A DNA stretch of 64,000 nucleotides from an uncultured Pseudomonadota bacterium (GCA_963770835.1 CAVYRH010000004.1:644764-708763); one strand, 5' to 3'; numbered from the stretch's first letter, positions 3,046 to 51,877 are shown. Program-made: numbers and translations. The notes: generated by a model not told the origin, from the sequence alone.

Positions 3046-3945
3046 ATGAACGTGGGACTTTGGATTCAAAAACAGCCAAAAATTAATATATTTATCCTCG
3101 CCACATTCCTGTTCCTAGCGGATGAATTTATCGACTACCGCACCGGGCCGGAACTGAACATGTCGTTCTTTCACCTTGTGCCCCTCTTTTTAATCGTTTG
3201 GAACGCGGGGTTCCTTCCCGGGCTCGCCTATTCCTTCTTTTGCGCCATCGTCATGCTCTTCGTGACGATCCACCCCTTGCTCACCCTCCCGACGGCCGTC
3301 CAGGCTTTCAACGTCCTCGCCAACCTCGTCTTCTACCTCGCCTTCATCGCCGTTTTGGCCCAGCTGAAAAAATACCTGGAAAAGGTGACCTTTATGGCCG
3401 AGGTTGACGGCCTCACGAACCTCCTCAACCCGCGCACTTTTTTACAGCGCGCGGAGCGGGAAATCCGGGGAGCCGCCAAGGCCTGGGAGCCGGTCACGGT
3501 CCTCTTCATCGACGTGGACGACTTCAAAAGGCTGAACGATACCTTCGGCCATGGGGCGGGGGACGAAGTCTTGAAATCCATTGGAAAAACCCTGAACGCC
3601 CATTTCCGGAAAAGGGACCTGCGCGCCAGGATGGGCGGGGATGAGTTCGCGGTCCTGTTGCCGGGCTTCCCGGTGGAAGCGGCGAAGGCGGAGATCCCAA
3701 GGTTCCACGAAAATTTGAACCGGTCGCTGGCGGGAACTAAAGGGGCCCCGACTTGCAGCATCGGGGCGGTTTCATTCCTCAAAACCCCCGCCTCCGCCCA
3801 GGCGGCCCTAGCCGAGGCGGACAGCCTGATGTACCAAGTGAAGTTGAGCGGGAAAAACAGCTGGATCTGGAAGGCAACCCCTTCCCAAGGGTCCGGCCCC
3901 GGCGTCTTGTTGGAAAAACCAGTGGCAACCGGCGTCACGAAGTAA
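3046..3945 (+). CDS. Membrane-anchored diguanylate cyclase (GGDEF)
   Basis: N-terminal TM helices; DGLTNLLN, FIDVDDFKRLNDTFGHGAGD, RKRD I-site 5 aa before MGGDEF. Confidence 0.9.
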   Translation: MNVGLWIQKQPKINIFILATFLFLADEFIDYRTGPELNMSFFHLVPLFLIVWNAGFLPGLAYSFFCAIVMLFVTIHPLLTLPTAVQAFNVLANLVFYLAFIAVLAQLKKYLEKVTFMAEVDGLTNLLNPRTFLQRAEREIRGAAKAWEPVTVLFIDVDDFKRLNDTFGHGAGDEVLKSIGKTLNAHFRKRDLRARMGGDEFAVLLPGFPVEAAKAEIPRFHENLNRSLAGTKGAPTCSIGAVSFLKTPASAQAALAEADSLMYQVKLSGKNSWIWKATPSQGSGPGVLLEKPVATGVTK

Positions 3946-3970
3946 ACCATTTAGAAGCGGTGGCCCACCT

Positions 3971-5602
3971 TTATTTCTTTCCCTGCTGGTACAGATAGTT
4001 CGCCAAGTCCTGGATTTGCGCGGGAGTCAGCTGGTCCGTGAAGCCCGACATGGCCGCGTCCTTGTTGAGCGAAAGCGGGTTCTTGATATAAGCCGCGATG
4101 TAATCCGCGTCACGGCCCTGCCCGATGTGGGACAGGTCGGGGCCGATATCCTCGCCTACGCCGTGGAACTTGTGGCAGGAGGCGCAATTGTCCTCATAAA
4201 GTTTGGGCGCCTGGGCTGAGAAAGCCCCTCCCCCCAAACTGCTCATATAAGCCACCAGGGCCTCCACTTCTCCGTCCAATAGGTTGAAATTGGGCATCTT
4301 GGTGCTGGGTGTGACCTTTTTGGGGTCGCGGAAATGGGCGGCCAACCAGTCCCGGTTGCGCCGCAAACCCACTTCGTCCAAGGCCGGGCCCACGGTTCCG
4401 CCGCGCCCGTTGAGGCTATGGCAATACTGGCAATGGAGGTCCGTGAAAAGCCTTTTCCCTTCCATGATGAGCGGATCTTTCTGGGTAATAGGGTTGGTCA
4501 AGGGCGTGCGGGCGCCCTGGACGGTCAAAATGATGACCCCCAGGACCGCCATCCATCCCGCGGCCACTAGCCATTTGCGGTCCGCCGGGTGGCGCTTGGG
4601 TCCCTTGTCCAAGAAGGGCAGGGCCAGGAGGGCCAGGATTACCAGGGTGGGGAGCAGGACGATGGCGAAAGCCTCGGATTTCCCCGGGAAATATTTCAGA
4701 AGCTGAAATACGGAAAGGAAATACCATTCGGGCCGGGGGTTATAGGTGGTATCGGTGGGATTGGCCAAATCCTCAAGTTCGGCGCCCCTCCACAATGCCA
4801 CAGCCACCACAATGGCGAAGACGATGAAGACGGCAGTGGTGTCCTTGAAAATGATGTAGGGCCAGAAGGATTTTCCCTGGGCCTTCAGCTCGGCGTAACG
4901 GGCCTTGTAGCGGGCCTTCCAATCGGGTTCCTTGCCGGTCGAGGAAGGATCCCTTTCAGGAGGAGCGGAGATGCCGTGCCAAACCACCAAGAAAAGATGG
5001 ACGCCGATGAAAAGGATAGCCAGGATCGGAAGAACCAGCACGTGAATGGCGTAAAACCGGGCCAGGGTGATGGCGCCCAGGTCCTGGCCGCCTTTCATGA
5101 TCTTGGAAAGGGCGTCCCCAAGAAACGGAACCTGCTCCACCATGTGGGCCCCCACGGTGGTGGCCCAGTAGGCCTTTTGGTCCCAGGGCAAAAGATAACC
5201 GGTGAAACCGAAGCCGATCACCAGGAAGAAAAGGAACACGCCCGTGAACCAGGTGACCTCGCGGGGGTATTTATAGGCGCCCATCATGAAGACGCGTAAA
5301 AGGTGCAGGAAGGCGGCCACCACCATGCCGGTGGCGCCCCATTTATGGAGGCTCCTTAAAAAAGACCCCATGGGGACTTCGTTGGTAATGTACCGGACCG
5401 AATCATAGGCGTGGTCGGGCGAGGGGGAGTAATGCATGGCTAAGAGCATGCCCGTGACCACCTGGAGGATGAAAAAGAAAAGGGTGATGCTGCCCAGGGT
5501 GTAACGCCAGCCGACGCCCTTGGGGATGTGGCGGTCGAAGATGACTTCCTTGATCTTGCGCCAGCCGGTGCGCTCATCCAGCCAGTCGAGGATTTTTTTC
5601 AT
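3971..5602 (-). CDS. qcrB: Cytochrome bc complex cytochrome b subunit fused to two c-type haem domains
   Basis: ATG 5602 overlaps the Rieske TGA; cytochrome b motifs (SLHKW, FLHLLR, GYLLPWDQKAYWA, AIHV, GVHL, PEWY) followed by CQYCH and CASCH. Confidence 0.9.
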   Translation of the reverse strand: MKKILDWLDERTGWRKIKEVIFDRHIPKGVGWRYTLGSITLFFFILQVVTGMLLAMHYSPSPDHAYDSVRYITNEVPMGSFLRSLHKWGATGMVVAAFLHLLRVFMMGAYKYPREVTWFTGVFLFFLVIGFGFTGYLLPWDQKAYWATTVGAHMVEQVPFLGDALSKIMKGGQDLGAITLARFYAIHVLVLPILAILFIGVHLFLVVWHGISAPPERDPSSTGKEPDWKARYKARYAELKAQGKSFWPYIIFKDTTAVFIVFAIVVAVALWRGAELEDLANPTDTTYNPRPEWYFLSVFQLLKYFPGKSEAFAIVLLPTLVILALLALPFLDKGPKRHPADRKWLVAAGWMAVLGVIILTVQGARTPLTNPITQKDPLIMEGKRLFTDLHCQYCHSLNGRGGTVGPALDEVGLRRNRDWLAAHFRDPKKVTPSTKMPNFNLLDGEVEALVAYMSSLGGGAFSAQAPKLYEDNCASCHKFHGVGEDIGPDLSHIGQGRDADYIAAYIKNPLSLNKDAAMSGFTDQLTPAQIQDLANYLYQQGKK

Positions 5603-6105
5603 CACGCTTCCCCCTGTGGCAGGATAAACAGGTTGCCGTTTTCTATTTTCACCTGGTAGCGGTTCAGCGGTTTCGGCGGCGGGCCCGAGATGACATGCCC
5701 GTCCTTGGCGAAGGTGCCGCCGTGGCAGGGGCAAAGGAAAGCCTTCTTGGTGGCATCCCAGCGGTAGGGGCAGCCCAGGTGGGTGCAATGGGGGTCATAG
5801 GCTACCCAGTCCTCCCCCTGTTTGACCACCCAGACGGAGCTGCCGCTCTCGATGACCTCCCAGCCGTCCTCCTTGCGGTTGACGTAGTCCACCTTCACCG
5901 GGTCCCCGGCCTGCAGGCCGGCCACAGGGCCCACATTCACCCAGCCTTCCTTTTTGCGGCGCCAAGCGGGGGAAAGAAAATAGGAAACACCCGAACCGCC
6001 GAGGACGAAGGCGATCATCGCCCCCATCAACGTGATCATGCCGATGAGGAAATTCCGGCGTTTGGGGTTTTCCGGGTCCGGGCGCGGGGCGGGGGATTCT
6101 GACAT
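5602..6105 (-). CDS. qcrA: Rieske 2Fe-2S subunit of cytochrome bc complex
   Basis: TAT-like KRRNFL plus TM helix; CTHLGC and CPCHGG boxes; GPPPKPL. Confidence 0.95.
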   Translation of the reverse strand: MSESPAPRPDPENPKRRNFLIGMITLMGAMIAFVLGGSGVSYFLSPAWRRKKEGWVNVGPVAGLQAGDPVKVDYVNRKEDGWEVIESGSSVWVVKQGEDWVAYDPHCTHLGCPYRWDATKKAFLCPCHGGTFAKDGHVISGPPPKPLNRYQVKIENGNLFILPQGEA

Positions 6106-6151
6106 AATTCTCTCCTGAGCGAATTGGGGGCTCTAATTAAAAGTCGGGTTT

Positions 6152-6183
6152 AAAAAAAGGCCGGGTCCAAAGGGCCCGGCCTT
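6152..6183 (-). terminator. Intrinsic terminator between cyc2 and Rieske genes
   Basis: Minus strand AAGGCCGGGCCC-TTT-GGACCCGGCCTT followed by a T run; stem 6157-6168/6172-6183 with one mismatch. Confidence 0.7.
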
Positions 6184-6205
6184 CGCTACGTTAACTGAGG
6201 TTTGG

Positions 6206-7624
6206 TTAAAAAGCGAGCCAGGCCATGGCCATCAAAGTGTTGTTATCCGAGGCTTTCCGTGCGGTGGCCCCGTCATAACCCAGCTCGGTGGTCGGATCCA
6301 CATTGTCCCCGCCGCCGTTGAACTTCCAATAGGCGGTGTACTGCAGGGTGAGCTTGGTGTTAAGCCAGGGCAGGTAATTGATCTCGTAAATCATGCCGTT
6401 GGACGTGGGATCACCCGTGGCGCTGCCGCTATAGGGTGTCGGGGTGTAAATCACGTCATCCGTAGTCCCACCCAGGCCAAAATAAGCCACGGTGAAACCG
6501 ATGGACCTTTGGTAATAAAAGGTCCCGTTGATCCGGAAAAGCTCCAACTGGTCGTCCAGGTTGGCTGACCCGGGGGCGGCTTCGTTGAAAGTGGAATTCA
6601 GCGTCTGGTATTCCCGGATCCAGGAAACCTGGAGGGAAGGCTGGATTTCCTTGGTGATGTACTGGGCTTGGGCATCGATGCCGAAATCCGTGAAGTTGTC
6701 CGCGGTGAACCCGGCCGGAATGCCGGCCGCCGGGGCCACATCCTCGGAAAACACGAAGCCCCCTAATTCGAAGGAGCTGTCGCCCACTTCCTGGTTGAAA
6801 GCCACGCGGGCGTAAGGCGCATAGCCCTGAATGGAGGCCGAACCCACGGCGGCCGGCGCCTGGGGCGCGCTGCGGTAGGCGCTGGCTTCCACGTAAACCA
6901 GCTTGTCCAGGTTGAGGTAAGCGCCCAAGCCGCCCACGCTACCTCCCAGAGTCGTTATTTGGGGGGCGGCGGTGGGCTGGGGGATGTTGGCGGAGGTGGC
7001 GTAGGGGAAGCCCCAGGCCGGAACCGTATTCCAGACGTCCTGGACGGTCGGGTTGTTGTTGAGGGTCAGGCCGAAGATTGCGTCACGCCCGTCCAGTTGG
7101 AAATGGGTGGCGTAGCGCACGTCGGTGTTGTCGGAGTGGAATACCCCCGAGCCGAAATCATAGGTGGCCTGTATAAAAGCCCCGATATTGGGCGAAATCT
7201 CCCCTGCGTAGAAAAGGCTCAATTGCTCGGGGAAAGCCACGTAGCCCTGCAAGTCGGTGTCGGGGCCTGGAACGGCGGTGGTGGGGTTCTTCACGAAGCT
7301 GTCTGAAATCTGCAGCATGGCCGAAAGGGGAGGAGCCTTGTCGATCTCCATCGACACGTCGCCGGTCTTGTCGTCCTTTTCCGTCACTTTGTCCGATTCA
7401 CCCGAAACGTAACCGTTCAATTTGAACCAGCGGCCGTAGGGGGTTAATTCGGGGAAGGCCGTATGACAGGCCATACAAGACATTCCCGTCTGCCGCGAAA
7501 AGCTGGGGACGGCCTGGGCCGGGGCGGAAAAAGAACCCCAAAGGACCGCGGATAAAAGCAGGAAAGACCAGGCGAAGGGGACGCCCATCCCTTTTTTTCT
7601 CACGGCCAGGGAATTCTCGCTCAT
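6206..7624 (-). CDS. cyc2: Cyc2-type fused monohaem cytochrome c - porin outer-membrane protein
   Basis: After the signal peptide: VPSFSRQTGMSCMACHTAFPELTPYGRWFKLNGY, matching the Cyc2 N-terminal signature (A. ferrooxidans LPSFARQTGWSCAACHTSYPQLTPMGRMFKL, recalled from memory); 472 aa, amphipathic beta strands, C-terminal Phe. Confidence 0.85.
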   Translation of the reverse strand: MSENSLAVRKKGMGVPFAWSFLLLSAVLWGSFSAPAQAVPSFSRQTGMSCMACHTAFPELTPYGRWFKLNGYVSGESDKVTEKDDKTGDVSMEIDKAPPLSAMLQISDSFVKNPTTAVPGPDTDLQGYVAFPEQLSLFYAGEISPNIGAFIQATYDFGSGVFHSDNTDVRYATHFQLDGRDAIFGLTLNNNPTVQDVWNTVPAWGFPYATSANIPQPTAAPQITTLGGSVGGLGAYLNLDKLVYVEASAYRSAPQAPAAVGSASIQGYAPYARVAFNQEVGDSSFELGGFVFSEDVAPAAGIPAGFTADNFTDFGIDAQAQYITKEIQPSLQVSWIREYQTLNSTFNEAAPGSANLDDQLELFRINGTFYYQRSIGFTVAYFGLGGTTDDVIYTPTPYSGSATGDPTSNGMIYEINYLPWLNTKLTLQYTAYWKFNGGGDNVDPTTELGYDGATARKASDNNTLMAMAWLAF

Positions 7625-7667
7625 ACAGCCTCCTCAAATCAGTTTATTTTTGCGGCTCCGCCCGGTT

Positions 7668-8102
7668 TTATTTTCCGCCCAGGGTGCGGATGTAATTGAC
7701 CACGTTCCAGCGTTCCTTGTCCGTCAGGTTCTTCGCGAAGGTGGGCATGGGCTTCTGCCCCTTGGTGATCTTCCAGAAAAGGGCTCCGTCGGTTTCGGCC
7801 TTCACTTGGGCGGAGGTCAGGTCGCCCGGTTTTTTCTTGAGCACCTTGCACATGGGGCCGTCGCCCTTGCCCAGGGTTCCGTGGCAGGAGAGGCACTTGC
7901 CGGTGAAGATTTTCTTTCCGGCATCGGTAGAGGTTTTGTCTGCGGCGATTGGGTTTTGGACCTGCGCGGCATCCGCCGGCACCTGCCAGCCCGTGGCGGC
8001 TTCATCGGCCATGGCGCAAGTCAGGGCTAGGCTGAATATCCCCACGGTGGCGAAGAAAGCCAGCAATAGGAAAAAATTTGGGGTGAATCCGATTCGCTTC
8101 AT
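7668..8102 (-). CDS. Periplasmic monohaem class I cytochrome c
   Basis: ATG 8102 after AAGGAGG; signal peptide, NPI...GKKIFTGKCLSCHG, distal Met in KPMPTF. Confidence 0.9.
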   Translation of the reverse strand: MKRIGFTPNFFLLLAFFATVGIFSLALTCAMADEAATGWQVPADAAQVQNPIAADKTSTDAGKKIFTGKCLSCHGTLGKGDGPMCKVLKKKPGDLTSAQVKAETDGALFWKITKGQKPMPTFAKNLTDKERWNVVNYIRTLGGK

Positions 8103-8187
8103 TTGATCCTCCTTGGTTATGACTGACGCGCTAAAGCTTAAGCACCTTAGCACGAAACCAATACTAGAAGGAGGAGGTGGAGTCATA

Positions 8188-8203
8188 TATGAGCTTCGTC
8201 ATA
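8188..8203. promoter_or_regulatory. TATGA-N6-TCATA site upstream of the cytochrome c-cyc2 unit
   Basis: TATGA GCTTCG TCATA; minus-strand TAGTAT (8166-8161) 21 nt away. Confidence 0.75.
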
Positions 8204-8450
8204 GAGGGCCAGACAGTATTTGGGCGATGGTTTTAGAAGTTTTTTAAAAGCTTGGGAAAAATTATCTGAGGATTGGGCTGATATGCCTTTTACCTATCAT
8301 TTTGATAGGTGGTTCCAGTTCCGGTATTTGGTTTACCTAAACCAAGCGCTTTTAAAAAGAGTCGTGGAATTCGGCCAAACCTTTTTGGGTTTTCCTGGGA
8401 CAACGGATAGGTTCCGTTAATGTTTTTCAAACGAAGTCAAGGGCCCGCAT

Positions 8451-8466
8451 TATGACGTTTCTCATA
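8451..8466. promoter_or_regulatory. TATGA-N6-TCATA site
   Basis: TATGA CGTTTC TCATA, 60 nt upstream of the 8527 gene. Confidence 0.7.
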
Positions 8467-8526
8467 CCCTCCCCTTATAAATAGGATCATCCTAAAGGTG
8501 AAATCAGATTCGCAAGGAGGTCCGCC

Positions 8527-9033
8527 ATGGTGTCCGTTGAAGAAAGGCTTGCCAAGCATCCTTTTTTAAAAGGGATTTCGGGCCCGAATATCCTCATGCT
8601 GGCCGAAGACACGGTCCCCATGGTTTTCCAGCCGGGAGAAATGCTGTTCCACCAAGGGCAGAAGGCCCATTACCTTTTCCTGATTGAAAAGGGGATCGTG
8701 GAAGTCGGAATTTTGAAGGGCGACAAATGCGGACCGGTCACCATCACCCACGTGGGGAAGGGCGGAAGCCTGGGATGGTCCTGGGCCTTCGCGCCCTTCA
8801 CGTGGAAGTTCGACGCCCGGGCCAAAGAACGGGTGGAGACCCTGGCCCTGGACGGAAAGCCCGTCATGGCCAAACTGGGGCGCTATCCCATGCTGGGTTA
8901 CGAGTTCATGCGACAGATGTCCCATTCCCTGTCCGAGGCGCTGGATGCCACCCGCCACCAGCTGGTGAAGATCCACCACCACGCGCCGGAAATCGAAAGG
9001 GAAATCCTCTATTTCCCCTCGCCCATCGTTTAA
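8527..9033 (+). CDS. Stand-alone cyclic-nucleotide-binding (Crp-type effector) domain protein without HTH
   Basis: HPFLKG, FQPGEMLFHQGQKAHYLFLIEKGIVEV, GGSLGWSW, WKFDARA; ends after the C-helix with no HTH. Confidence 0.8.
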   Translation: MVSVEERLAKHPFLKGISGPNILMLAEDTVPMVFQPGEMLFHQGQKAHYLFLIEKGIVEVGILKGDKCGPVTITHVGKGGSLGWSWAFAPFTWKFDARAKERVETLALDGKPVMAKLGRYPMLGYEFMRQMSHSLSEALDATRHQLVKIHHHAPEIEREILYFPSPIV

Positions 9034-9053: not shown

Positions 9054-9683
9054 ATGGGGAAACTTATGGGGCTTAAAATGCGTACAGGTTTTTTGGTTGT
9101 CGTAGTTATCTTGCTCGTCGGAATTACCGCCGATTCCTCCTGGAAAGAATCGTCCGGTACGGGCCTTCAAGCGGCGGAAAATCCCCTCGTTATCCAAGGC
9201 CGCCGGCTTTACACCCAATTTCATTGCGAGTATTGCCATCGGCTGAAAGGACGCGGCGGCACCGTGGGCCCGGCCCTGGACAATGTGGGCTTCCGAAGGA
9301 CGACCGAATGGCTGTCGGACCATTTCCAGAACCCCCAAAAACTTTCGAAGGGTTCCCAAATGGCCCGCATTCCACTGAAGGACGACCAGGTGAAAGCCTT
9401 GACGGCCTTCATGAACAGCCTGGGCGGGCGGACCTTTACGCCCGAAGCCCCCACACTCTTCGTGCAATATTGCAGTTCCTGCCACCGGATGAACGACATC
9501 GGCGTTCCCACCACGGTCGACCTTTCCAACGAAGGGCAATTCCGTGACATTGATTTCATACAGAACCGCATCAAGGACCCCCTGCAAATGAAACCTACCA
9601 CCACCATGCCGAGTTTCGGCCGGGTGCTCACCGACGCCCAGATCAAGGACCTGGCGGTTTATATCTTCCGTGGGGGGCGTTGA
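9054..9683 (+). CDS. Dihaem cytochrome c, paralogue of the c-domains fused to cytochrome b
   Basis: ATG 9054 after GGGAGG; N-terminal hydrophobic segment, CEYCH and CSSCH; RGGTVGPALD shared with the 3971-5602 protein. Confidence 0.85.
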   Translation: MGKLMGLKMRTGFLVVVVILLVGITADSSWKESSGTGLQAAENPLVIQGRRLYTQFHCEYCHRLKGRGGTVGPALDNVGFRRTTEWLSDHFQNPQKLSKGSQMARIPLKDDQVKALTAFMNSLGGRTFTPEAPTLFVQYCSSCHRMNDIGVPTTVDLSNEGQFRDIDFIQNRIKDPLQMKPTTTMPSFGRVLTDAQIKDLAVYIFRGGR

Positions 9684-16220: not shown

Positions 16221-17117
16221 TCACCGGCCCGCGACGGCCCTATCGTAAAAGACGGCCTGGACGGTGCGGTTGGGGCCCTCTGATCTGGACTTGCGTAGCA
16301 TTTCTTGGAGGTCACGGACGGCTTTTTGATATTCCTTCCAGGTTTTTCGTCTGCGGTTTTTCAACTCTCTTATCCAAGACTGGGTTTCGGGGAACAAACC
16401 GTTACCGGCTTTGCCTAAAAGGGCTAAGGCGTTGTCCAGGTCCCGCCAATCCCCCAAAACGGTTTGGGCTTTCTTGCATAGCGTCGCCAGCTCCCGGCCC
16501 CCACGGGACAGGAGGAACCCGAACTCCTCCAGGCTGTAACGCATTCGCTTGGCCTGCACCCGGAGCTTATGAAGAAGAGACCGGCTGGTTTTAGCGGTCT
16601 TCGTTTTCTTGAGGAGGTTCTCTAGACGCCGTTTTTCGTGTTCAAAGGCCTCCATCGCTTCCGAGGTGATTTTTTGGCGGTTGGCCCTTAAGACTAATTT
16701 CTTTCCAAGTCTGGAAAATCCGCGGACAAACGGGGGTGAAACCAAATGATTCCGGATTTCCTTTTCGCGCATTTGCCGAACTTCCTCCTGGATTTTTAAC
16801 CATGCTTGCAAGCCTGGGGATGGGGAGGGAATGGGAGGTAGGGATTTTAAAAGGGAGTCGAAAACCTCCTTGTCCCTTAGGACATTGGTTTCCTGGCCGA
16901 TGCCCTTGAGGAAGCCGAAGACGGCTACGAGGGTCCGGGGTAAGTAGCAACCCTTCAATAATCGCAGGCAAGTGCGAAGGCGGCGAAGGGAGACTCGGAA
17001 ATCATGGAGGGCCTCCGGATCCCTCCCTTTCAGGACCCGAAAACGGTTGCGTTCCAGCCGGGACAGGATCAGGTTCAGGCGCTTGGAAAAAAATTCCTTC
17101 TTGGGAAGAGGTTTCAT
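16221..17117 (-). CDS. CHAD-domain (polyphosphate-binding) protein
   Basis: EALHDFRVSLRRLRT, LRDKEV, LHKLRVQAKRMRYSLE, QTVLGDWRD; ATG 17117. Confidence 0.85.
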   Translation of the reverse strand: MKPLPKKEFFSKRLNLILSRLERNRFRVLKGRDPEALHDFRVSLRRLRTCLRLLKGCYLPRTLVAVFGFLKGIGQETNVLRDKEVFDSLLKSLPPIPSPSPGLQAWLKIQEEVRQMREKEIRNHLVSPPFVRGFSRLGKKLVLRANRQKITSEAMEAFEHEKRRLENLLKKTKTAKTSRSLLHKLRVQAKRMRYSLEEFGFLLSRGGRELATLCKKAQTVLGDWRDLDNALALLGKAGNGLFPETQSWIRELKNRRRKTWKEYQKAVRDLQEMLRKSRSEGPNRTVQAVFYDRAVAGR

Positions 17118-17134
17118 TGGATACGCCCTTGGAA

Positions 17135-17950
17135 CTATTTTTTCCGTTCGGATTCCATTTGTTTGAGGGATTTTTCCAGTTCCGCCGCTTCCCGGTGGAG
17201 GGCTTTTTCCTCCATCCAATCCGAGTGGTGTTTTAGGCCCGAGGCGACGATTTCCAGAGCGCGGCGCCGGGCATAATGCTTATGGTCTGCCGGGATGAGG
17301 TGCCAGGGAGCGGCCTTCGTATGGGTCTTTTCCAGCATTTCCTCCGCCGCATCCACGTAGTCGTCCCAGCGCGCGCGGGCCTGGATGTCCTCCGGCGTGA
17401 TCTTCCACTGCTTATAGGGATCCTTGATCCTGGCCTCAAACCTTTTCAACTGCTCCTGCGGCGAGATGGCCAGGAAAATCTTGATGAGGTCGATCCCGTC
17501 GTCCACCAACATTTTTTCAACCTGGTTGATTTCGTCGTAGGCCTGGGCCAGGCGGTCCTTGGGCGCGAGTTTTTCCACCTTTTCCACCAGCACTCGGCCG
17601 TACCAGGACCGGTCGAAGACGGCCCATTCACCGGGCGGGGGGAAAGCTTCCCAAAAGCGGTGGAGGTAATGCCGGCCTTGCTCTTCCACCGAGGGAGGGC
17701 CGAAGGAATGGACCTTCACGCCCCGGGGGTCCAGCCGCTCGGTCAAGCGGCGGATGGTGCCGCCCTTCCCGGAGGCGTCGAATCCTTCGAATAGAACCAG
17801 CGCCCTCCGCTTGCCGTGCCAAATGCCCTGTTGGATGCGCACCATCTGGAGTTGTAATTTTTTAACGACCTCGTCGTAATCTTTTGAATCCTCGGAGGGG
17901 AAGTCCCCTTCCTTCAGGAGTTTCCTCAAACTCAGCCGGTCGGATGACAT
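17135..17950 (-). CDS. ppk2: Polyphosphate kinase 2 family protein
   Basis: FEGFDASGKGGTIRR, FDRSWYGRVLVE, KIFLAIS, WKITPED, APWHLIPADHK. Confidence 0.95.
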   Translation of the reverse strand: MSSDRLSLRKLLKEGDFPSEDSKDYDEVVKKLQLQMVRIQQGIWHGKRRALVLFEGFDASGKGGTIRRLTERLDPRGVKVHSFGPPSVEEQGRHYLHRFWEAFPPPGEWAVFDRSWYGRVLVEKVEKLAPKDRLAQAYDEINQVEKMLVDDGIDLIKIFLAISPQEQLKRFEARIKDPYKQWKITPEDIQARARWDDYVDAAEEMLEKTHTKAAPWHLIPADHKHYARRRALEIVASGLKHHSDWMEEKALHREAAELEKSLKQMESERKK

Positions 17951-21958: not shown

Positions 21959-22948
21959 GTGAAGGATGTATCGCAAGTGACCCTAAAATTCGGAGCCCTT
22001 CTTTTACTTTTTATATCCACCCTGGGGTGGGTGTCGCCCGGATGGGGGGACGCGAAAAACCCTGAATCGCATTTTTCCCTTGTCCAGGGTTCAGTGAAGG
22101 TGGTCAGCGGCGGCGGTACGGTCCGTAAGGTCGCGGTCGGCGACACGGTTTATCCCGGGGAGACTGTCCAGGTTGGGAGCAAGTCCCAAGCCCAAGTCAC
22201 CCTGTTCGACAGCTCCACCCTTGATTTGTCGGCCGACACCAAAATCACCCTTAGCAAACTCCAACAGCCTTCCTCGAACGACAAAGTAATCTCCATGAAA
22301 CTCGCCTTGGGAAGGGTCTTCGCTCAGGTCAAAAAACTGTTTTCCGCCAAGTCCACCTTCGAGATCGAGGCCGGAGGCGTGGTCTGTGGCGTCAGGGGCA
22401 CGGCCTTTTCCATGGACTTCGATCCGAAGTCGAACAAGCTGGACCTGAATGTCTTCAATGGAAAAGTGTCCGCCACGAACGGGGGGAATACCCTGTTTTT
22501 CGGCGCCGGACAGCACTGCCATTTCTTGAACGGCCAGGCGACGGGGACCGGCGGCGGATCCAACAACAATGGCACGAAGAACAGCGGGAAGGGTGGAACC
22601 AACGGAGGGAATTCCAACGGGACTGGGGGAAATAATTCTGGATCAAATTCCAACGGTGGCACTTCGAGCTCCAATTCCAACGGCGGGAACGGTACGGGCT
22701 CCAATGAAAACAACGGCGGGACAAACGGAAACGGGAACAACACCCAGGAAGGGAGCAACTCCGCGGCGGGGAACAATCCTCCCAATCCCGGCAATCCATC
22801 TCCCGGTTTGGACACCAACACCTGCCTGGGCGATCTCAACAACCAGTTCACCCAGGGCATCCTGATCAACGGGGATAACAACCTAAGTTCTGCCCAGCAA
22901 ACCGTGAACATCCACTTGGTGGTTCCGGCCCGGGAGGCTGTTCCATGA
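21959..22948 (+). CDS. Secreted FecR-domain protein with Gly/Asn/Ser-rich linker
   Basis: Signal peptide; VYPGETVQVG, LFDSSTLDLSADT, LALGRVF, CGVRGTAF, VFNGKV; low-complexity tail. Confidence 0.8.
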   Translation: MKDVSQVTLKFGALLLLFISTLGWVSPGWGDAKNPESHFSLVQGSVKVVSGGGTVRKVAVGDTVYPGETVQVGSKSQAQVTLFDSSTLDLSADTKITLSKLQQPSSNDKVISMKLALGRVFAQVKKLFSAKSTFEIEAGGVVCGVRGTAFSMDFDPKSNKLDLNVFNGKVSATNGGNTLFFGAGQHCHFLNGQATGTGGGSNNNGTKNSGKGGTNGGNSNGTGGNNSGSNSNGGTSSSNSNGGNGTGSNENNGGTNGNGNNTQEGSNSAAGNNPPNPGNPSPGLDTNTCLGDLNNQFTQGILINGDNNLSSAQQTVNIHLVVPAREAVP

Positions 22949-24072
22949 ACCGGGAGCAAAGACCCCTATGTTTCATCGTCATCTTTTTGTCAGCTGTTTC
23001 GATGGCTTCGGCCCAAAGTTCCGCACCCACCCCCGTCGGAAAAATCGACGTAGGAGCCGAATACGTGGGGTGGGGAACGAATAACACCGGTTCCACAGGA
23101 TCGGAAATCCTGGTGCCCCTGACCCTTTCGGCAATCCCTTGGGGCGGCGCCAAGATCTACGCCCAAACCGAATTCGCCAACGGTAGTTATAGCGATTCGG
23201 TCGTTGCCCCGGAAACCATAAACCTAAGCAACCTTTCAGATACTGTCCTTGGATTTGAAACCAACTTTAACAGCTTTTCTGTCCCTTCCATTCTGAACGT
23301 GGGTCTCAACATTCCCACGGGGGACCCGACTTGGGAATTCAAACAGACAAACTCGATCGTTCCCACTTATTTCATCGATAGCGATTACCGGGGAAGGGGA
23401 TTGGGTTTGAGCTGCCTTTATGGAATTTCCATGTCCGCTGGCAGCGAGCAGTACGGCCTAGCCGCCGGCTATCTTTACTCGGGAGCCTTCAATCCAGGCT
23501 ACAGCTCGGCGGAGGCCGAGCAACTGAAACTGGGTGATTCGGCCTTTCTTTCCATGAACCGGGTTGCCGACCGCGGCAACGGACAGACGGATGTCATCCG
23601 CCTCTCCGTTTTCTATTTCCTGGACACCCAAATTAACGGCTCCAACCTGCTGCAAATGGGGCCCAACCTCAACGCCTCCTATGGCTGGCAGAACCCCAAG
23701 GCCCTGTCGTTTGAGGTGGGGGGGCAGTATTTCTTTCCGGCCCAACAGGCCGGCCAGTCGGTGAACCTGCTGGGAAGCCGTTTCTACGCCACCCCCAGTT
23801 ACGCCTTTGGGGATTTCACCATTACCGGACAGTTTAAATACGTCCTGTCCAACGGTTATTCCTCCAGCGATATCGGCCAGTACGTCGGCGGAGGCTGGCT
23901 GGCGGGGCTGGAACCTTCCTACAAATTCCAGCTGGATAAATCCTCCTCGTTGCGGGTTTCGGCCTCATATGATTACGTCCACGCCACCGGCGGCGGCCTT
24001 TTTGACGGGAGCGTAGTGGACGTCGATTACGGGCACTGGACTTTCGGCACGCATTACGAGGTGAACCTATGA
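22945..24072 (+). CDS. Putative outer-membrane beta-barrel protein
   Basis: Signal peptide, aromatic/Gly-rich amphipathic strands, C-terminal FGTHYEVNL; ATGA overlaps on both sides. Confidence 0.65.
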   Translation: MNREQRPLCFIVIFLSAVSMASAQSSAPTPVGKIDVGAEYVGWGTNNTGSTGSEILVPLTLSAIPWGGAKIYAQTEFANGSYSDSVVAPETINLSNLSDTVLGFETNFNSFSVPSILNVGLNIPTGDPTWEFKQTNSIVPTYFIDSDYRGRGLGLSCLYGISMSAGSEQYGLAAGYLYSGAFNPGYSSAEAEQLKLGDSAFLSMNRVADRGNGQTDVIRLSVFYFLDTQINGSNLLQMGPNLNASYGWQNPKALSFEVGGQYFFPAQQAGQSVNLLGSRFYATPSYAFGDFTITGQFKYVLSNGYSSSDIGQYVGGGWLAGLEPSYKFQLDKSSSLRVSASYDYVHATGGGLFDGSVVDVDYGHWTFGTHYEVNL

Positions 24073-27000
24073 CATCTCGAAAGGCAGCCGTCAGCCGTCA
24101 GTCCTCAGTCCTCATCAAGAACTTAAAACGAAAACTGCGGACATGGCTGGGACTTATCCCCACGGGGATTGTGTTGGCTGCCGGCACCTTGGCCCTCCTG
24201 GCCCACTGGGGATGCCATGGACCCGCCTCCAACCCCACCTCACCCGGGGTAACGCCGCTAAGGGGATTTACTCTTAACTTCTCCGTGCCCCTGACCAATG
24301 AAATCAAGGCCAGCCTGCTCAACGTCTCCAGCAACGAGGTCCTCTACAACGTTACCGGCCCCAACATGTCGCCGGTCACGGGCGTGGCCGGTCCCTTTGG
24401 CACGAGTTCCAGTGTCGGCGCGGGGGAACTGGATTTTCCTATTGCTGTTCCCCAAGGTTCCGCCCGCCTGATCGCTTTTGAACTCACCAACGCCGCCAAC
24501 GGCCAGCCTCTAGCCCTGGGCGCAGTCCAGACCGACATCAGCGCCGGAGGCGTTAGCGATATCTGGGTGACAATGGGTTCGGTCATCCGCAACTGCTACG
24601 CGGTGGATACTTCGGCTTTCTTCCCCCCGGGGCCCGATTCCGGAGCCGTCAGCAATGTTTATTTCACATTCAATAGCGACACCTTGTCCACAACGCCGAC
24701 GGGAGATATGGCGGTGACCACCGTCCCTGGCGGCTTCAGCTTCGTGGCCCAATCCCCCAACCAGATCGCCTACATGGGGAACGGCCCCCTGGTCAATTTC
24801 ACCTCAGCCCCCGGGACCTTCACCGGTTCCGGTCCCACCCAGCTTCTCAAGACAGGGGACGTTTATTGTGTCAGCTTGGGGGCGGGTGCGGCAAACGGGT
24901 ACGCCTGGGTGCAAGTCACAAACGCCAACGAAATCTTTAATATCAACAACATCACTTCGGTTTATTCCGCGGGACCGAAGTTCCTTTACCGGATCAACCA
25001 CAGCCTGCCCTATTTCGCCTACGACGAGACTTCGGCGGACCAGAACTCCACCTGCTCCACGCCGGTTCCTACTTATACTTACATTCCCACCAATACCTTC
25101 ACACCCACCCCCAGCCCAACCGTTACCAACACGCCCACGATCACCGCCACCCCCACCGACACCGCGACGGCCACCATCACCGACACCCCCAGCTCACCCA
25201 CCGCCACCTTCACCTACACTGTTTCCGACACCCCCACCAACACCTCCTCGCCCACCAACTCCCCCGCTGTGGGGTCCCCGACCGCAACCTTTACTCCTTC
25301 CCCCACCGTTACCTCAACCTTCACTTTCACGCCCAGCCCCACCTTTGTGGCGGGCTATTTCGTCACGAGTTCCGCCACACCCCTGATAACGGACCCCAAC
25401 AACGGGGCTTGGGAGAGTTTTGTTTTGACCATCAACGCCACTTCCAACGGAAACCCGGCCGTCAGTTACGCCTTGGTGACGGATTCGGCAAACAGCGAAT
25501 ACGCCTGGGTGGGTCCCTGGACCTACACAGGGAGCGGGACCAACTTCTCGGTGACCCTTACCGGAGGGGATTTCAACCTTTCCAATCCCGTGTCCACCTC
25601 CTTCTCGGTGGCCCTTTACAACGCCGCCCAGAACCAGCTTTTGGCTTCCTGTGTTCCAACGGGCGTCCCCGCCACCCTGGAGGCGCCGGAAGAGTATTTC
25701 TATTATGACTACGAGTACGAAAACGGCTATTACAACGTCATGGGCTGCGCGGCCACAGCGGAGGACGGGAACTGCCAGGGAGTAAGCTTCTATTCCTACC
25801 TGGAAGTCCACGGTTCGAACCCGGTGACGAGCTTGATCGAGCTCATCGACACCTCCAGCAGCGTGACCGCTTTCCTGGGCCCGGTCACGGCTAGCAGTTA
25901 CTTTAACGGTAACTGGTATCTTTCCCCGGCGCAGTTCGGAGTGACGGAAGTGGGGCAGCAGGCCCTGGCCCAGACGATCGTGGCCCAGCTGGTAGACGCT
26001 AATACGGACGCGGTTTTGGACGAGAAATCCTTAGGGACTTTCAGCCTGGAATCTTCCTCCTCAGCCTATATCGCTTCCAGCGGCATTTCCATCCTGCAAA
26101 CGGACCCGAACAACGGGGCCTGCCAGAGGTTTGTGTTGACCATCAACGCCGACGCGCCCACGGGCGTGTTGGAGACCAGCTACGCGGCCGTGACGGACAT
26201 GGCCAACGGCCAGTACGCCTGGGTGGGCCCTTGGACCTACACGGGGAACGGCAACAGCTTCACGGTGACGATGACGGGCGGGGATTGGGACATCACCACC
26301 CCGACCCTGTCCTCGCTGAAGGTGCTCCTTTACGCCGATAACCAGACCCAGTTCCTGGACAGCAATACCCCCGCGGGATCGCCCCTGACGCTGGAGTCAC
26401 CGGAGGAGTATTTCTACAGTGACGACAGCTACTACGAGTACAACGCCCTGGGATGTGCGGTTACGGCGGAGGATGGGAACTGCCAGGGAGTCAGTTTTTA
26501 TTCCTATCTGACAACCCCCAACGACGTACCCGTGACGAGCCTAATCGAGCTCATTGATACTTCTAACAGCGTGACGGCCTTCCTGGGCCCGGTGACGGGA
26601 ACAGGCAGCGGCGATACCTGGTACCTTTCGCCGGCCCAGTTTGGTGTAACAGTAGTGGGGCAGCAGGCCCTGGGCCAGACGATCCTGGCACAGCTGGTGG
26701 ACGCCAATACCCAGGCGGTCCTGGATGAGAAGCCCCTGGGAAGCCTGAACCTGGAATATCCTTCCTCGGCCTATATTGCCTCCAGTGCCATTTCCGTCCT
26801 GCAGACGGACCCGAACAACGGGGACTGCCAAAGGTTCGTGCTGACCATCGATGCCGACGCGCCCACAGGCGTGTCGGAGACCAGTTACGCGGCTGTGACA
26901 AATACGGCCAGCGGCCAGTACGTATGGGTGGGCCCCTGGACCTATACGGGGAACGGCAACAGTTTCACAGTGACGATGTCGGGTGGAGATTTGGACATCA

Positions 27001-30000
27001 CCTCCCCGACCGACGTTTCGCTGAAGGTGCTCCTCTACTCCGACAACCAGACCCAGCTCCTGGACAGCAATACGCCCGCGGGATCGCCCCTGACCCTGGA
27101 GGCGCCGGAGGAATATTTCTATAACGACGACGAGTACGAAAACGGCTATTACAACGTCATGGGCTGCGCGGCCACCGCGGAGGATGGGAACTGCCAGGGG
27201 GTGAGTTTCTATTCCTACGTGCTTACCCCCAACGATGTCCCCGTGACGAGCCTGATCGAGCTTATCGATACTTCCAACAGCGTGACGGCCTTCCTGGGCC
27301 CGGTGACGGGAACGGGCCAGGAAAACACCTGGTACCTCTCGTCGGCGCAGTTCGGTGTAACGGAGGTGGGGCAGCAAGCCCTGGGACAGACGATCCTGGC
27401 GCAGCTGGTGGACGCCAATACCCAGGCGGTCCTGGACGAGAAGCCCATGGGAAGCCTGAACCTGGAATACCCCTCGCGGGCCTATATCGCCTCTAGCTCT
27501 CTTTCCTGCCTGCAATCCAACGCCAACGGCTGCCAGAGTTTCGTGGTGACTATCACGGCTAATGCTCCCACGAGCGTGACGGAGACCAACTACGCCATCC
27601 TGACCGACATGGCGAATAACGAGCTCGTGACCGTAGGCCCCTGGAACTCCGTGGGGGGCACGGGCACTACCTCGGTGACTTTGTCGGCCGGGGCTTTCGA
27701 GGCAACCTCCCCCGCTTATACATCCTTCCGTGTGGCATTGCTCAATTCCGCCAATGCAATACAGGACGTTGCCACACCCACCGGGTCGCCCCTGACGCTG
27801 GCCACCGCCCAGGAATACATGTATTCAAGCTCCCTTTCCTGCCTGACGCAGTCGGAAGACGGCAATTGCGTGACCTTTGTTTATAACGCCTACCTGGAAG
27901 ACCCCTCTGCCTCCCCGGTGACGGGCTATATCAAGCTGGTGGATGAGACCAATGGCAATTCCATAACGCTGGGGCCGGTGACCAACACCGGTACGTACAC
28001 GAACTACCCGGCTACCCTCACGGGCGCCAATTTTGGCCTGGCTGCAAACCAGGGAGCCGTCAGCCAAGTCTTCCAGGCCCAGTTGTACGATTCCACCCAA
28101 ACCCAGCTTTGGGACATCCGGGGGGCCGGAACCCTCAGCATCGAAAACAGCGGCGGAGCTTCCATCATCCTGGCTGGGGCGTCGGTTTCCGCCGGGGTGA
28201 CGGACGCCAGCGGGAACTGGGAGAGTTTCGTTTTGACCATCGATGCGAATACCTCCGGCGGGCCGGCGGAAAGTTACGCAAAGGTGGCGGATACGACGAA
28301 CGGCTATTTCGTGTGGGTGGGCCCTTGGAGCTATACGGGGAGCGGAACCAGCTTCTCGGTGACCTTGACGGGTGGGGATTTTAACCTGTCCTCCAGCCCG
28401 GTATCCGCCTCTTTGGCGGTCACCCTTTACGATCCGACCCAAACCCAGGCTTATGGCAACATCGTTCCCACGGGATCCCCCGTGTCGCTGGAGGCACCGA
28501 AAGAGTATTTTTACAGTGATGACGGTTACTACGGCTACAACGACCTGGGTTGCGCAACCACAGCGGAGGACGGAAACTGCCAGGGGGTGAGCTTCTATTC
28601 CTACCTGCAAACCTCTTCCGGTTCGGGCCCGGTGACGAGCCTGATCCAGCTCATCAACCTCTCCAGCAGCGTGACCGCCTTCCTAGGCCCGGTCACGACC
28701 AGCAGTTACGCCTATGGAACCTGGTATCTCACGCCGGCGCAGTTCGGGGTGACGGAAGTGGGGCAACAGGCCATGGGCCAGACGATAATGGCCCAATTGG
28801 TGGACGCCAATACGGACGCGGTTTTGGATGAGAAATCCGTGGGGAGCCTGAACCTGGAATCTCCCTCCTCGGCCTATATTTCCTCCAGCTCGGTCTCGGC
28901 GGCGGTCACCAATGCCACTGGTTGCGAGCAATTCGTGCTGACCATCGACGCCGACGCGCCCCCAGGCGTGTCGGAAACCAGCTACGCGGCCGTGACTGAC
29001 ATGGCCAACGGCTATTACGCCTGGGTGGGCCCCTGGACCTACACGGGGAGCGGGAGCAGCTTCTCGGTGACCTTGGTGGGAGGGGATTTGGGCATCACAA
29101 ACCCGACGGTGTCCTCACTTAAAGTGCTTCTCTATGCCGACAACCAGACCCAGATCCTGGACAACAATACGCCCGCGGGATCGCCCCTGACGCTGGAGTC
29201 GCCGGAGGAGTATTTCTATTATGACGACGGGTACGACAACGGCTATTACAACAACCTGAGTTGCGCGACCACGGCGACGGATGGGAATTGCAAGTCGGTG
29301 AGTTTCTATTCCTACCTGGAAACCCCCAACGACGTCCCCGTGACGAGCCTGATCGAGCTGATCAATCTTTCCAACAGCGTGACGGCCTTCCTGGGCCCGG
29401 TAACGGGTACGGGCGGTAGTGATGTTTGGTACCTTTCACCGGCGCAGTTTGGGGTGACGGAAGTGGGGCAGCAGGCCTTGGGGCAGACGATCCTGGCGCA
29501 GCTGGTGGACGCCAATACCCAGGCGGTCCTGGACGAGAAGCCCCAGGGAACTTTAAACCTGGAATATCCTTCCTCAGCCTACATCGCCTCCAGCTCGGTC
29601 TCGGCGGCGGTCACCACTGCCACCGGTTGCGAACAATTCGTGCTGACCGTCGACGCCAATGCGCCGGCGGGGGTGGAACAGACCAGTTACGCGGCTGTGA
29701 CGGACACGGCCAGCGGCTATTACGCCTGGGTGGGCCCCTGGACCTACACGGGGAGCGGGAGCAGTTTCTCGGTGACCCTGACGGGTGGGGATTTGGGCAT
29801 TACCACCCCGACGGCGGCCTCATTGAAGGTGCTGCTCTATGGTGACAGCCAGGGTGGGACAGTTTTGGACAGCGCTACGCCGGCGGGATCGCCCCTGACG
29901 CTGGAGGTCCCGAAGGAGTATTTCTACTATGACGACGGTTATTACGGCTACAACGACCTGGGTTGCGCGGCCACGGCGGAGAACGGGAACTGCCAGTCGG

Positions 30001-37311: not shown

Positions 37312-37327
37312 TATGAGCCAGGTCATG
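37312..37327. promoter_or_regulatory. TATGA-N6-TCATA-like site
   Basis: TATGA GCCAGG TCATG; TAAGGT at 37350 (gap 22). Confidence 0.65.
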
Positions 37328-40179: not shown

Positions 40180-40393
40180 ACTTTTGTCGTTCAGCAAGTT
40201 TTTCACGCTCTTTCATTTCCTTTTTTAAAAATTCGAGTAATTGTCCGTTCATTCGAAAGCTTTTGTTTGTCTTGATGGTTGGGAATGGGCGGATGAATTC
40301 GTACTTGAAAAGGTTCCCTTCCTTTTATACGCTACCTTGGTTGCCTTCCCCCAGCCTGGGGGGTGGAGAACCCGTTTTTTTGAAAGGATTTTT

Positions 40394-42789: not shown

Positions 42790-42798
42790 GGAGCCCTT

Positions 42799-47743: not shown

Positions 47744-47774
47744 TATGACTTGGATCATTATGACCAAGGTCATA
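47744..47774. promoter_or_regulatory. Two abutting TATGA-N6-TCATA sites upstream of the Crp/Fnr gene
   Basis: TATGACTTGGATCATT (47744-47759) and TATGACCAAGGTCATA (47759-47774); TACCAT at 47796 (gap 21). Confidence 0.8.
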
Positions 47775-47879
47775 CTGCGGGCAAGGGTACCCTCCTACCA
47801 TGAGTTGGACAGGTTCGAACCGCTCCAAAGGAGCCGCACCATGTTTCATATACAACCCGCCGCCGGCAGGAGGCCTTTT

Positions 47880-51861: not shown

Positions 51862-51877
51862 AAAGGAGTCTTTGAAA

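Follow-up and report, generated by a model that had tools for sequence, protein, structure and literature searches.

The 64,000-nt stretch of DNA analysed here, referred to below as the window, belongs to an uncultured Pseudomonadota bacterium (GCA_963770835.1 CAVYRH010000004.1:644764-708763) and contains, at positions 3971-8203, a group of four co-directional minus-strand genes in which a gene for a Cyc2-like protein stands together with those for a monohaem cytochrome c and a Rieske/cytochrome b complex. Cyc2, a cytochrome fused to a porin, is the most widespread candidate marker of microbial iron oxidation. The original prediction for this locus, made from the nucleotide sequence alone, had given the gene order as cytochrome c, Cyc2-like barrel, Rieske protein and cytochrome b fused to two c-type haems (cytochrome b-cc), preceded by a palindrome with a -10 element at 21 nt, and each of these parts was found in its place on the minus strand:

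8188-8203, minus strand: regulon palindrome TATGACGAAGCTCATA, a perfect TATGA-N6-TCATA / TATGAC-N4-GTCATA
8161-8166, minus strand: candidate -10 hexamer TAGTAT, exactly 21 nt after the palindrome and without a -35 element
7668-8102, minus strand: periplasmic monohaem class I cytochrome c, 144 amino acids (Pfam Cytochrom_C and Cytochrome_CBB3)
6206-7624, minus strand: Cyc2-family fused cytochrome-porin, 472 amino acids, assigned by motif, AlphaFold2 fold, Foldseek comparison and homology
5602-6105, minus strand: Rieske 2Fe-2S subunit, 167 amino acids, with an N-terminal membrane anchor (Pfam Rieske, E = 1.2e-13)
3971-5602, minus strand: cytochrome b fused to a C-terminal dihaem cytochrome c, 543 amino acids (Pfam Cytochrome_B, Cytochrom_B_C and two Cytochrom_C)

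The successive intergenic gaps of the group measured 43 nt and then 100 nt, and the stop codon of the Rieske gene shares 1 nt with the start codon of the cytochrome b gene (ATGA), an overlap which suggests that the two are translationally coupled. Downstream, the gene of a GGDEF protein is convergent, so that the transcription unit ends at 3971. The proposed physical linkage of Cyc2 to the cytochrome c and to the Rieske/cytochrome b-cc complex is borne out, and the four genes are probably co-transcribed. An identical Cyc2-like protein was found on four other metagenome contigs, each with the same four genes. The monohaem cytochrome c, which possesses a single haem site (CLSCH) and a signal peptide ending with AMA in front of DE, likely starts at ATG 8102, with an AAGGAGG ribosome-binding site 5 nt ahead, and stops at 7668; an open reading frame (ORF) of 172 amino acids starting from 8186 was discarded as an over-extension in favour of this start. 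Identity of the 144-amino acid protein with cytochrome 579, its best NCBIfam match, was also rejected, the score being 45 bits at a cut-off of 280. The Rfam search found no RNA family anywhere in the window, and hence nothing in the 5' untranslated region or in the 100-nt gap that corresponds to a known riboswitch or leader. Terminator-like hairpins were not accepted as operon boundaries: they were of 5-8 bp, were located mostly within coding sequence and occurred at about twice the shuffled expectation. Two strain variants of the locus differed: in L001 (11520-12022 and 15207-16145) the Rieske gene lay in two ORFs and a DDE transposase was present about 1.5 kb past the end of cytochrome b-cc, and in L004 (4938-6646) the cytochrome b gene was split, reflecting either long-read indel errors or a decay of the operon in some strains.

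The definition of Cyc2 given by Keffer et al. (2021; PMC8406198) includes a signal peptide, a single CXXCH preceded directly by AXPXFAR[Q/K][T/Y] and followed after four residues by PXL, a length above 365 amino acids and a 16-strand porin of the OprO/OprP type. The 472-amino acid protein of the window holds the strings VPSFSRQTGMSCMACH and PELTPYGRWFKLNGY, which the original prediction had quoted for it. Its N-terminal sequence (SAPAQA followed by VPSFSRQTGMSCMACHTAFPEL) has, by inspection, the elements of a signal peptide, that is, a basic RKK, the hydrophobic stretch VPFAWSFLLLSAVLWGSF and a cleavage motif, AQA before V, directly ahead of the Cyc2 signature. The protein has one CMACH, at residues 50-54, with the only two cysteines of the whole chain, and the motif in front of it, AVPSFSRQT, matches the published signature at 8 of 9 positions, with S in place of A before the arginine. 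The consensus of 50 homologues reads PSFARQTGMxCAACH..FPEL, and the relatives carry either A or S before the arginine, the pattern derived from the alignment being [VLI]PSF[AS]RQTG[ML]. On the downstream side (CMACH-TAF-PEL), residues P58, E59 and L60 were invariant in the 50-sequence alignment. The AlphaFold2 model, built on an alignment of homologues, reached a predicted local distance difference test score (pLDDT) of 82.6 and a predicted template modelling score of 0.81, and consisted of 16 long beta-strands behind a short helical haem region, with a C-terminal phenylalanine. Foldseek placed the model among the 16-strand porins of the PDB, including DcaP, OprP (2o4v, rank 2) and OprO (4rjx, rank 43); OprP and OprO are the templates named for the Cyc2 of Mariprofundus PV-1 (Keffer et al., 2021; PMC8406198). 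Only the fold comparison was informative in this respect: a sequence search against solved structures produced nothing meaningful (best E = 0.36), and no Pfam or NCBIfam model matched the protein.

The family is large, with more than 2,500 matches in a collection clustered at 90% identity, 5,321 clusters of 50% identity at E <=0.001 (757 at E <=1e-30) and members in more than 593 species genomes. With tblastn, homologues that were 36-42% identical, in alignments spanning more than 87% of the length, were found on replicons of Ralstonia, Caballeronia and Acidiphilium. Ralstonia, the Burkholderia related to it and Acidiphilium count as carriers of Cyc2 in the literature, and a network study ties Burkholderiales and Acidiphilium to the Cyc2 of Acidithiobacillus ferrooxidans. 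The gene order around these homologues (high-potential iron-sulfur protein, Cyc2-like protein and cytochrome c in Caballeronia; Cyc2-like protein and cytochrome c in Acidiphilium) fits the known Cyc2 module. By motif, with its one A-to-S change, by predicted fold and by homology the protein is thus identified as a fused cytochrome-porin of the Cyc2 family, as had been proposed, and the predicted barrel was recovered in the model as a 16-strand porin. Proteins shown to act as Fe(II) oxidases are the Cyc2 of PV-1, for which a potential of +208 mV was measured (Keffer et al., 2021; PMC8406198), that of A. ferrooxidans, Cyt572 and a cluster 3 Cyc2 of Nitrospirota. Cyc2 homologues are also widespread in organisms without known iron oxidation, and oxidation of Mn(II) has been proposed.

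The Rieske subunit carries the cluster-binding boxes CTHLGC at residue 107 and CPCHGGTF at residue 125, and its matches to the NCBIfam models of b6f and bc1 Rieske proteins remained below their cut-offs. Ser and Tyr residues in box II raise the potential of Rieske proteins. Both of these residues, present in the bc1/b6f Rieske proteins, are missing from CPCHGGTF, which hints at a low-potential complex of the menaquinol type. The cytochrome b combines a b6-like N-terminal part with a C-terminal part similar to subunit IV, and shows two His pairs (H86/H100 and H187/H202), the Qo motif PEWY at 291 and two haem sites, CQYCH and CASCH, in the C-terminal 160 amino acids. Its best NCBIfam match was cytochrome b6, and the 14-residue spacing of the second His pair is of the b6 type. 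At what we take to be the position of the conserved b6 cysteine for haem c_i a threonine is present (YTLGSITL), and a b6f-type haem c_i was therefore rejected. Judged by features alone, the protein has both characters, PEWY and a fused cytochrome c, that gave the name to the 'PEWY-cyt c' clade of Kao & Hunte (2014). This clade has a patchy distribution, probably the result of horizontal spread, and includes Acidobacteria, Planctomycetes, Nitrospira and the iron oxidizer Leptospirillum ferrooxidans; the same authors speculate that extra copies of cytochrome b may prefer the reverse reaction (Kao & Hunte, 2014).

The palindrome in front of the operon proved to be one of many in the window. The motif TATGANNNNNNTCATA (TATGA-N6-TCATA) with at most one mismatch occurred 17 times, at 681, 1656, 8188, 8451, 11543, 13967, 19987, 20192, 31014, 31867, 33557, 37312, 45198, 47657, 47744, 47759 and 48954, against an expectation of 0.40, and this number was reached in none of 100 shuffles. 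Together with a gene for a CRP/FNR-type regulator in the same window, this bears out the regulon that the original prediction had claimed. The features concerned, apart from the palindrome of the operon itself, were:

8451-8466, plus strand: second perfect regulon palindrome TATGACGTTTCTCATA, in front of the divergent operon, whose cNMP-binding gene starts 68 bp further on
8527-9033, plus strand: divergent protein with a cNMP-binding domain, 168 amino acids (Pfam cNMP_binding only, without a DNA-binding domain)
9054-9683, plus strand: membrane-anchored dihaem cytochrome c, 209 amino acids, a paralogue of the dihaem domain fused to cytochrome b (47-48% identity)
47745-48539, plus strand: CRP/FNR-family transcription factor, the candidate regulator (Pfam cNMP_binding and HTH_Crp_2)

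If TAGTAT is the -10 box, some 41.5 bp would separate the centre of the palindrome at the Cyc2 operon from the transcription start downstream, and the promoter would fit the class II geometry of the CRP/FNR type. A scan of 3800-8600 for the sigma-70 consensus found no complete promoter, which is expected for an activator-dependent one. Several of the sites are located about 70 bp ahead of gene starts. The genes behind them include, besides the divergent cNMP-binding gene, those for a rubrerythrin (20273), a hemerythrin-domain protein (31093), an NMO-like protein (32058), a ScdA/RIC-type hemerythrin (33714), an AurF-like di-iron protein (45278), an M50/CBS protease (14046) and radical-SAM enzymes. 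The set looks like a regulon of O2, NO or redox stress, whose oxidative and nitrosative stress members suggest induction by O2, NO or a redox signal. The CRP/FNR gene has three copies of the palindrome at its own 5' end (47657, 47744 and 47759), and, because these occupy the annotated 5' end, the true start is probably near 47880. Unusually, one stretch of the regulator's sensor domain, CMVGANSLFGTCCCFGGGQYPC, is rich in Cys, and it does not resemble the Cys cluster at the N-terminus of Escherichia coli FNR. The divergent cNMP-binding gene adjoins the Cyc2 operon in all strain variants, and the dihaem cytochrome c encoded behind it might serve the complex as an alternative or additional module for electron transfer. 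Another perfect palindrome, CTATCATTTTGATAG, is present in the divergent intergenic region at 8294-8308; it is unique in the window, not above chance, and may be a site for a different regulator.

For the question of how common the linkage is, the 80 closest relatives were taken from the more than 593 species genomes with a member of the family, none of them a known iron oxidizer, and the neighbourhoods were counted by clustering of the neighbouring ORFs over 82 loci. Four loci of close relatives had the following gene orders (percentages refer to the identity of Cyc2):

L005, a metagenome-assembled genome (MAG) of FCPU426, 61%: cytochrome c, Cyc2, cytochrome c, Rieske, cytochrome b-cc
L086, 57%: cytochrome c, cytochrome c, Cyc2, dihaem c, Rieske, cytochrome b-cc
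L085, 62%: the same ends, with four genes inserted (VIT1, two small genes and an MFS gene)
L087, 46%: cytochrome c leading directly into Rieske-cytochrome b, and a Cyc2-like gene 7 kb off

The order of the operon is thus kept in L005 and L086, and in L085 with the four insertions. Conservation of the cyc2-Rieske-cytochrome b synteny, on which the original prediction was to be checked, was confirmed in so far as the arrangement is not unique to the window: it is conserved within the window clade and recurs in at least four other lineages, making up about 10% of the loci. In the Cyc2 protein tree (neighbour-joining, without support values) Rieske-linked Cyc2 appeared in at least five places, namely in the window clade, in Binatia (L078), twice in Ignavibacteriaceae (L031 and L047) and in Lentimicrobiaceae (L018), and sister loci with full flanks did not have the linkage. 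A Rieske gene was within 5 kb of Cyc2 in 8 of the 82 loci. A monohaem cytochrome c of the window type stood directly upstream of Cyc2 in 23 of them, and a dihaem c4-like gene directly downstream in 30, in Proteobacteria, as in cyc2-cyc1. The palindrome also recurred: in L085 perfect copies are present ahead of both the cytochrome c-Cyc2 and the Rieske-cytochrome b modules, in L087 ahead of cytochrome c-Rieske-cytochrome b, and in L059, a Flavobacteriaceae MAG, just upstream of the cytochrome c-Cyc2 pair (7437-7452), so that the regulatory element may travel with the module across phyla. As far as gene neighbourhoods tell, the linkage is a minority arrangement, yet a conserved and recurrent one, backed by co-regulation, and the cytochrome c appears to be what the two modules have in common. 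The host is a soil bacterium, and the affinity of the window to FCPU426, a candidate phylum that is seldom recovered and whose physiology is almost undescribed, is taken solely from best matches to one FCPU426 MAG and one 'uncultured proteobacterium' MAG.

Two of these loci showed further genes of possible interest. In L085 (8693-9349) a gene of the VIT1 family of Fe/Mn transporters directly follows the Cyc2-like gene and a hemerythrin-like gene is present after cytochrome b-cc, which hints at an iron context. In L087 (6402-11374) the Cyc2-like gene comes after genes for a cupredoxin, a rubrerythrin, a 506-amino acid protein without assignment and a COX2-like protein with a cytochrome c domain, a cluster loosely similar to the rus operon, where cyc2 is accompanied by a cupredoxin and an oxidase.

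A possible electron sink was found in the window at a distance of 32.6 kb from the Cyc2 gene:

40241-43425, plus strand: A1-type haem-copper cytochrome c oxidase, genes for COX2, COX1 and COX3 (Pfam COX2, COX1 and COX3)

A1-type cytochrome c oxidases are marked by GHPEV in helix VI of subunit I and by Cu_A in subunit II. COX1 has GHPEV at residue 284 and COX2 an intact Cu_A site (CDELCGYGHTRM), which indicate an A1-type, cytochrome c-oxidizing enzyme and agree with the oxidase of this type expected some 32 kb away; the best NCBIfam matches, CtaD/CoxA and CoxB, were both slightly under their equivalog cut-offs. The one-mismatch palindrome at 37312 heads a same-strand string of genes that ends in those of the oxidase, and the oxidase possibly belongs to the palindrome regulon. 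No genes of carbon fixation or lithoautotrophy were present among the approximately 40 ORFs scanned in the window (mostly of at least 200 amino acids, with an incomplete coverage of 53-64 kb), and nothing in the window therefore calls for uphill electron flow.

The interpretation we favour, with a probability of roughly 0.45, is that of a shared cytochrome c hub, which would be fed by both Cyc2 and complex III and drained by the A1 oxidase. The CRP/FNR-type activator would switch on the four-gene operon. The single haem of Cyc2, situated at the periplasmic mouth of the 16-strand barrel, would take electrons from a dissolved reductant outside the cell or in the periplasm, most probably Fe(II) by the precedent of the family, and pass them to the 144-amino acid cytochrome c. 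The same pool of cytochrome c would accept electrons from the quinol-oxidizing Rieske/cytochrome b-cc complex, and both streams would run downhill to the A1-type oxidase. Reverse flow from cytochrome c into the Rieske/cytochrome b complex would be possible, not required. Oxidation of Fe(II) would then serve as a supplementary respiration and/or as protection wherever oxygen reaches a habitat that is anoxic and rich in Fe(II); use at an Fe(II)/O2 interface of this kind would agree with the VIT1 neighbour in L085 and with the di-iron and oxidative stress genes of the regulon. The sequences show the parts and the families to which they belong, their linkage with its conservation or recurrence, and the common regulatory motif; we infer the substrate, the direction of flow and the role of the cytochrome c as common shuttle, the last because this cytochrome c stands in front of Cyc2 at 23 of the 82 loci and, in L087, directly in front of the Rieske-cytochrome b pair.

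A number of observations weigh against a working Cyc2-complex III connection of this kind. On the side of the protein, a strict screen with PXFAR[Q/K][T/Y] fails by one residue, S for A, and the haem region of the model is poor (pLDDT below 50 for residues 35-49), as expected because the cofactor is absent from the model, so that the position of the haem is not fixed by it; published authors, moreover, hold the function of Cyc2 outside cluster 1 to be uncertain. On the side of the linkage, about 90% of the sampled family members are without a Rieske/cytochrome b neighbour, and the linkage is therefore not intrinsic to the function of Cyc2. The palindrome was looked for and not found in L005 and L086. 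The cytochrome b of L087 is the most similar to that of the window (85% identity), and its operon there has no Cyc2; this cytochrome c-Rieske-cytochrome b operon suggests that Cyc2 was added to a complex III operon via a common cytochrome c and does not belong to an obligate, dedicated conduit. Finally, the low-potential type of the Rieske protein would fit a downhill flow from quinol to cytochrome c, and is at least as compatible with an outward flow to Cyc2. Of the compact conduit from the outer membrane to the quinone pool advanced in the original prediction, the linkage was supported; a dedicated uphill branch found no support in the window, and the L087 operon without Cyc2 and the lack of autotrophy genes among the scanned ORFs are unfavourable to it.

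The outward flow just mentioned would lead from quinol through the Rieske/cytochrome b-cc complex and the monohaem cytochrome c to Cyc2 and on to an acceptor dissolved outside the cell (for example humic quinones, Mn(III/IV) or Fe(III) in chelated form), as a complete branch of anaerobic respiration needing no oxidase. A quinol oxidase co-transcribed with an outer-membrane cytochrome is how an export branch would be expected to look, the Rieske box II without the potential-raising Ser and Tyr would favour the forward quinol-to-c direction, and many members of the CRP/FNR family, to which control is assigned here, are active in anoxia. Models of A. ferrooxidans even propose a route from the quinone pool via bc1 and cytochrome c or rusticyanin to Cyc2 or Cyc2B as terminal Fe(III) reductase. 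We nevertheless consider this direction unlikely: reductase activity at neutral pH has been shown biochemically for no Cyc2, the +208 mV of the PV-1 protein suits the uptake of electrons from Fe(II) (PMC8406198), metal reducers typically employ multihaem conduits, and the regulon, rich in O2/NO-defence genes and possibly including the oxidase, fits better with induction under oxic or micro-oxic conditions. With the direction inverted, the same four proteins might form a dedicated uphill branch of lithoautotrophy, in which electrons from Fe(II) would pass through Cyc2, cytochrome c and a reversed Rieske/cytochrome b-cc complex to quinones and NAD(P)H, and the A1 oxidase would supply the proton-motive force. 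The conserved and recurrent linkage of Cyc2 to Rieske/cytochrome b speaks for it, as do the dedicated bc1 complex (petI) serving uphill flow in A. ferrooxidans and the PEWY-cyt c features, given that the clade includes Leptospirillum ferrooxidans and that a reverse preference of extra copies has been speculated upon (Kao & Hunte, 2014). It appears quite unlikely in view of the L087 operon, which points to an ordinary respiratory complex III, of the missing carbon fixation genes in the part of the window scanned, and of the fact that nothing points to a second, 'forward' complex III in the organism; if the quinone is menaquinone, at which the Rieske protein hints, uphill flow from Fe(II) would also be very costly.

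The connection may, on the other hand, have no redox meaning at all, Cyc2 having come to stand beside the cytochrome c gene through drift of gene order or horizontal insertion and working, for instance, as a porin that is induced by stress and detoxifies Fe(II) or bears haem, or upon a non-iron substrate such as Mn(II). The rarity of the Rieske/cytochrome b neighbour in the family, the variable number of genes between Cyc2 and Rieske (0, 1 or 4), the L087 operon and the wide occurrence of Cyc2 homologues in organisms that do not oxidize iron, with Mn(II) oxidation among the proposals, could all be so explained. Against this stands the recurrence of the linkage at no fewer than five places on the Cyc2 tree; the same palindrome ahead of both separated modules in L085 argues for selected co-expression, and a cytochrome c partner common to the two modules points in the same direction, so that an absence of dedicated coupling seems rather improbable. 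At the opposite end stands a stronger form of coupling, in which the four genes would make up a self-contained, horizontally mobile 'outside-to-quinone-pool' cassette: Cyc2, cytochrome c and Rieske/cytochrome b-cc would act as a stoichiometric trans-envelope unit, be induced together with the di-iron stress proteins by a CRP/FNR regulator sensing redox, O2 or NO, and have been assembled on repeated occasions, in FCPU426-like bacteria, Ignavibacteriaceae, Lentimicrobiaceae and Binatia. This is doubtful, and the shared cytochrome c hub remains the interpretation we prefer.

The best studied Cyc2 proteins are those of Mariprofundus PV-1 (cluster 1), A. ferrooxidans (cluster 2) and Leptospirillum (Cyt572, cluster 3) (PMC8406198; McAllister et al., 2020, PMC7029218). 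The protein of the window shares with them the signal peptide, the single N-terminal CXXCH with its flanking signature, a length of about 470 amino acids and the 16-strand porin similar to OprP/OprO, and the locus shares an adjacent gene for a periplasmic c-type cytochrome. It differs from them by the S-for-A change in the signature and by the host, an uncultured lineage related to FCPU426 without known iron physiology. In the known iron oxidizers, furthermore, cyc2 is found alone, with cyc1 or with an oxidase, while here it is part of a Rieske/cytochrome b operon. A. ferrooxidans, where flow by way of bc1 and Cyc2 has precedents in the uphill as well as the outward direction, has in its rus operon (cyc2-cyc1-cup-coxBACD-rus) and petI operon (cycA1-sdrA1-petA1B1C1) the same functional list of parts in a different distribution: its cyc2 is linked to the oxidase, with bc1 encoded elsewhere, whereas here cyc2 is linked to Rieske/cytochrome b and the oxidase is 32 kb off. 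The partner cytochrome of A. ferrooxidans is a dihaem c4 and its bc1 has three subunits, in contrast to the monohaem partner and the b6-like cytochrome b fused to a dihaem c in the window; the present operon has no rusticyanin or other cupredoxin, and the rus-type succession of a dihaem cyc1, cupredoxin/rusticyanin and aa3 genes after cyc2 is absent here.

The chain of Leptospirillum, from Cyt572 in the outer membrane through Cyt579 in the periplasm to a bc complex or a cbb3 oxidase, follows the same three-tier logic, and Leptospirillum ferrooxidans has a cytochrome b with the 'PEWY-cyt c' features as well. The differences are that the match to Cyt579 is far under its threshold here, that the oxidase is of the A1 type and not cbb3, and that the organism is not evidently an acidophile; the literature on Leptospirillum that was searched gave no description of the three tiers being joined in one operon. 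With the MtoAB, PioAB and MtrCAB systems the locus has in common the passage of electrons across the outer membrane via a cytochrome held in a barrel, often encoded together with periplasmic partners. Those systems consist of a 26-strand barrel with a separate decahaem cytochrome, and the one haem motif and 16 strands of the present protein, with the haem fused to the barrel, place it outside this group; a single-haem barrel of the Cyc2 type is predicted to handle only dissolved substrates.

In the literature searched, adjacent genes for mono- or dihaem cytochromes c are all that is noted beside cyc2, and no cyc2-Rieske-cytochrome b operon was found described; the subscription journals lay outside this scope, so that this absence is no proof. 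The Cyc2 family and its schemes of electron transfer are already known, and what appears to be new is the arrangement of operon and regulon that joins Cyc2 to complex III. The electron route from Cyc2 to the inner membrane has been modelled mostly by inference, and the role of Cyc2 in many carriers that do not oxidize iron is unexplained. Concrete partners are named by an operon that ties Cyc2 to one particular cytochrome c and to one particular Rieske/cytochrome b complex, and also by a regulatory motif persisting on the modules after they have been split. With this operon, Cyc2-based electron transfer is extended to a candidate phylum of soil and peat about which very little is known, and the operon suggests a link between the expression of Cyc2 and the responses to oxygen and nitrosative stress. 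Were the cassette reading true, a direct connection of Cyc2 with complex III would for the first time be defined genetically, and the small size of the cassette would allow its transfer to a laboratory host; if the operon reflects only a common cytochrome c, the result is a useful annotation and no new mechanism.

Several other features of the window lie apart from the operon. A giant ORF of 2,301 amino acids and another of 375 amino acids, both without a Pfam match, occupy 21959-30974 on the plus strand behind a gene for a FecR-domain protein. A PPK2 polyphosphate kinase gene adjoins that of a CHAD-domain protein at 16221-17950 on the minus strand, and a plus-strand cluster of ketoacyl synthases and a short-chain reductase, fatty acid- or polyketide-like, is present at 49703-53281. 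The GC content falls from about 58% to about 48% beyond approximately 44 kb.

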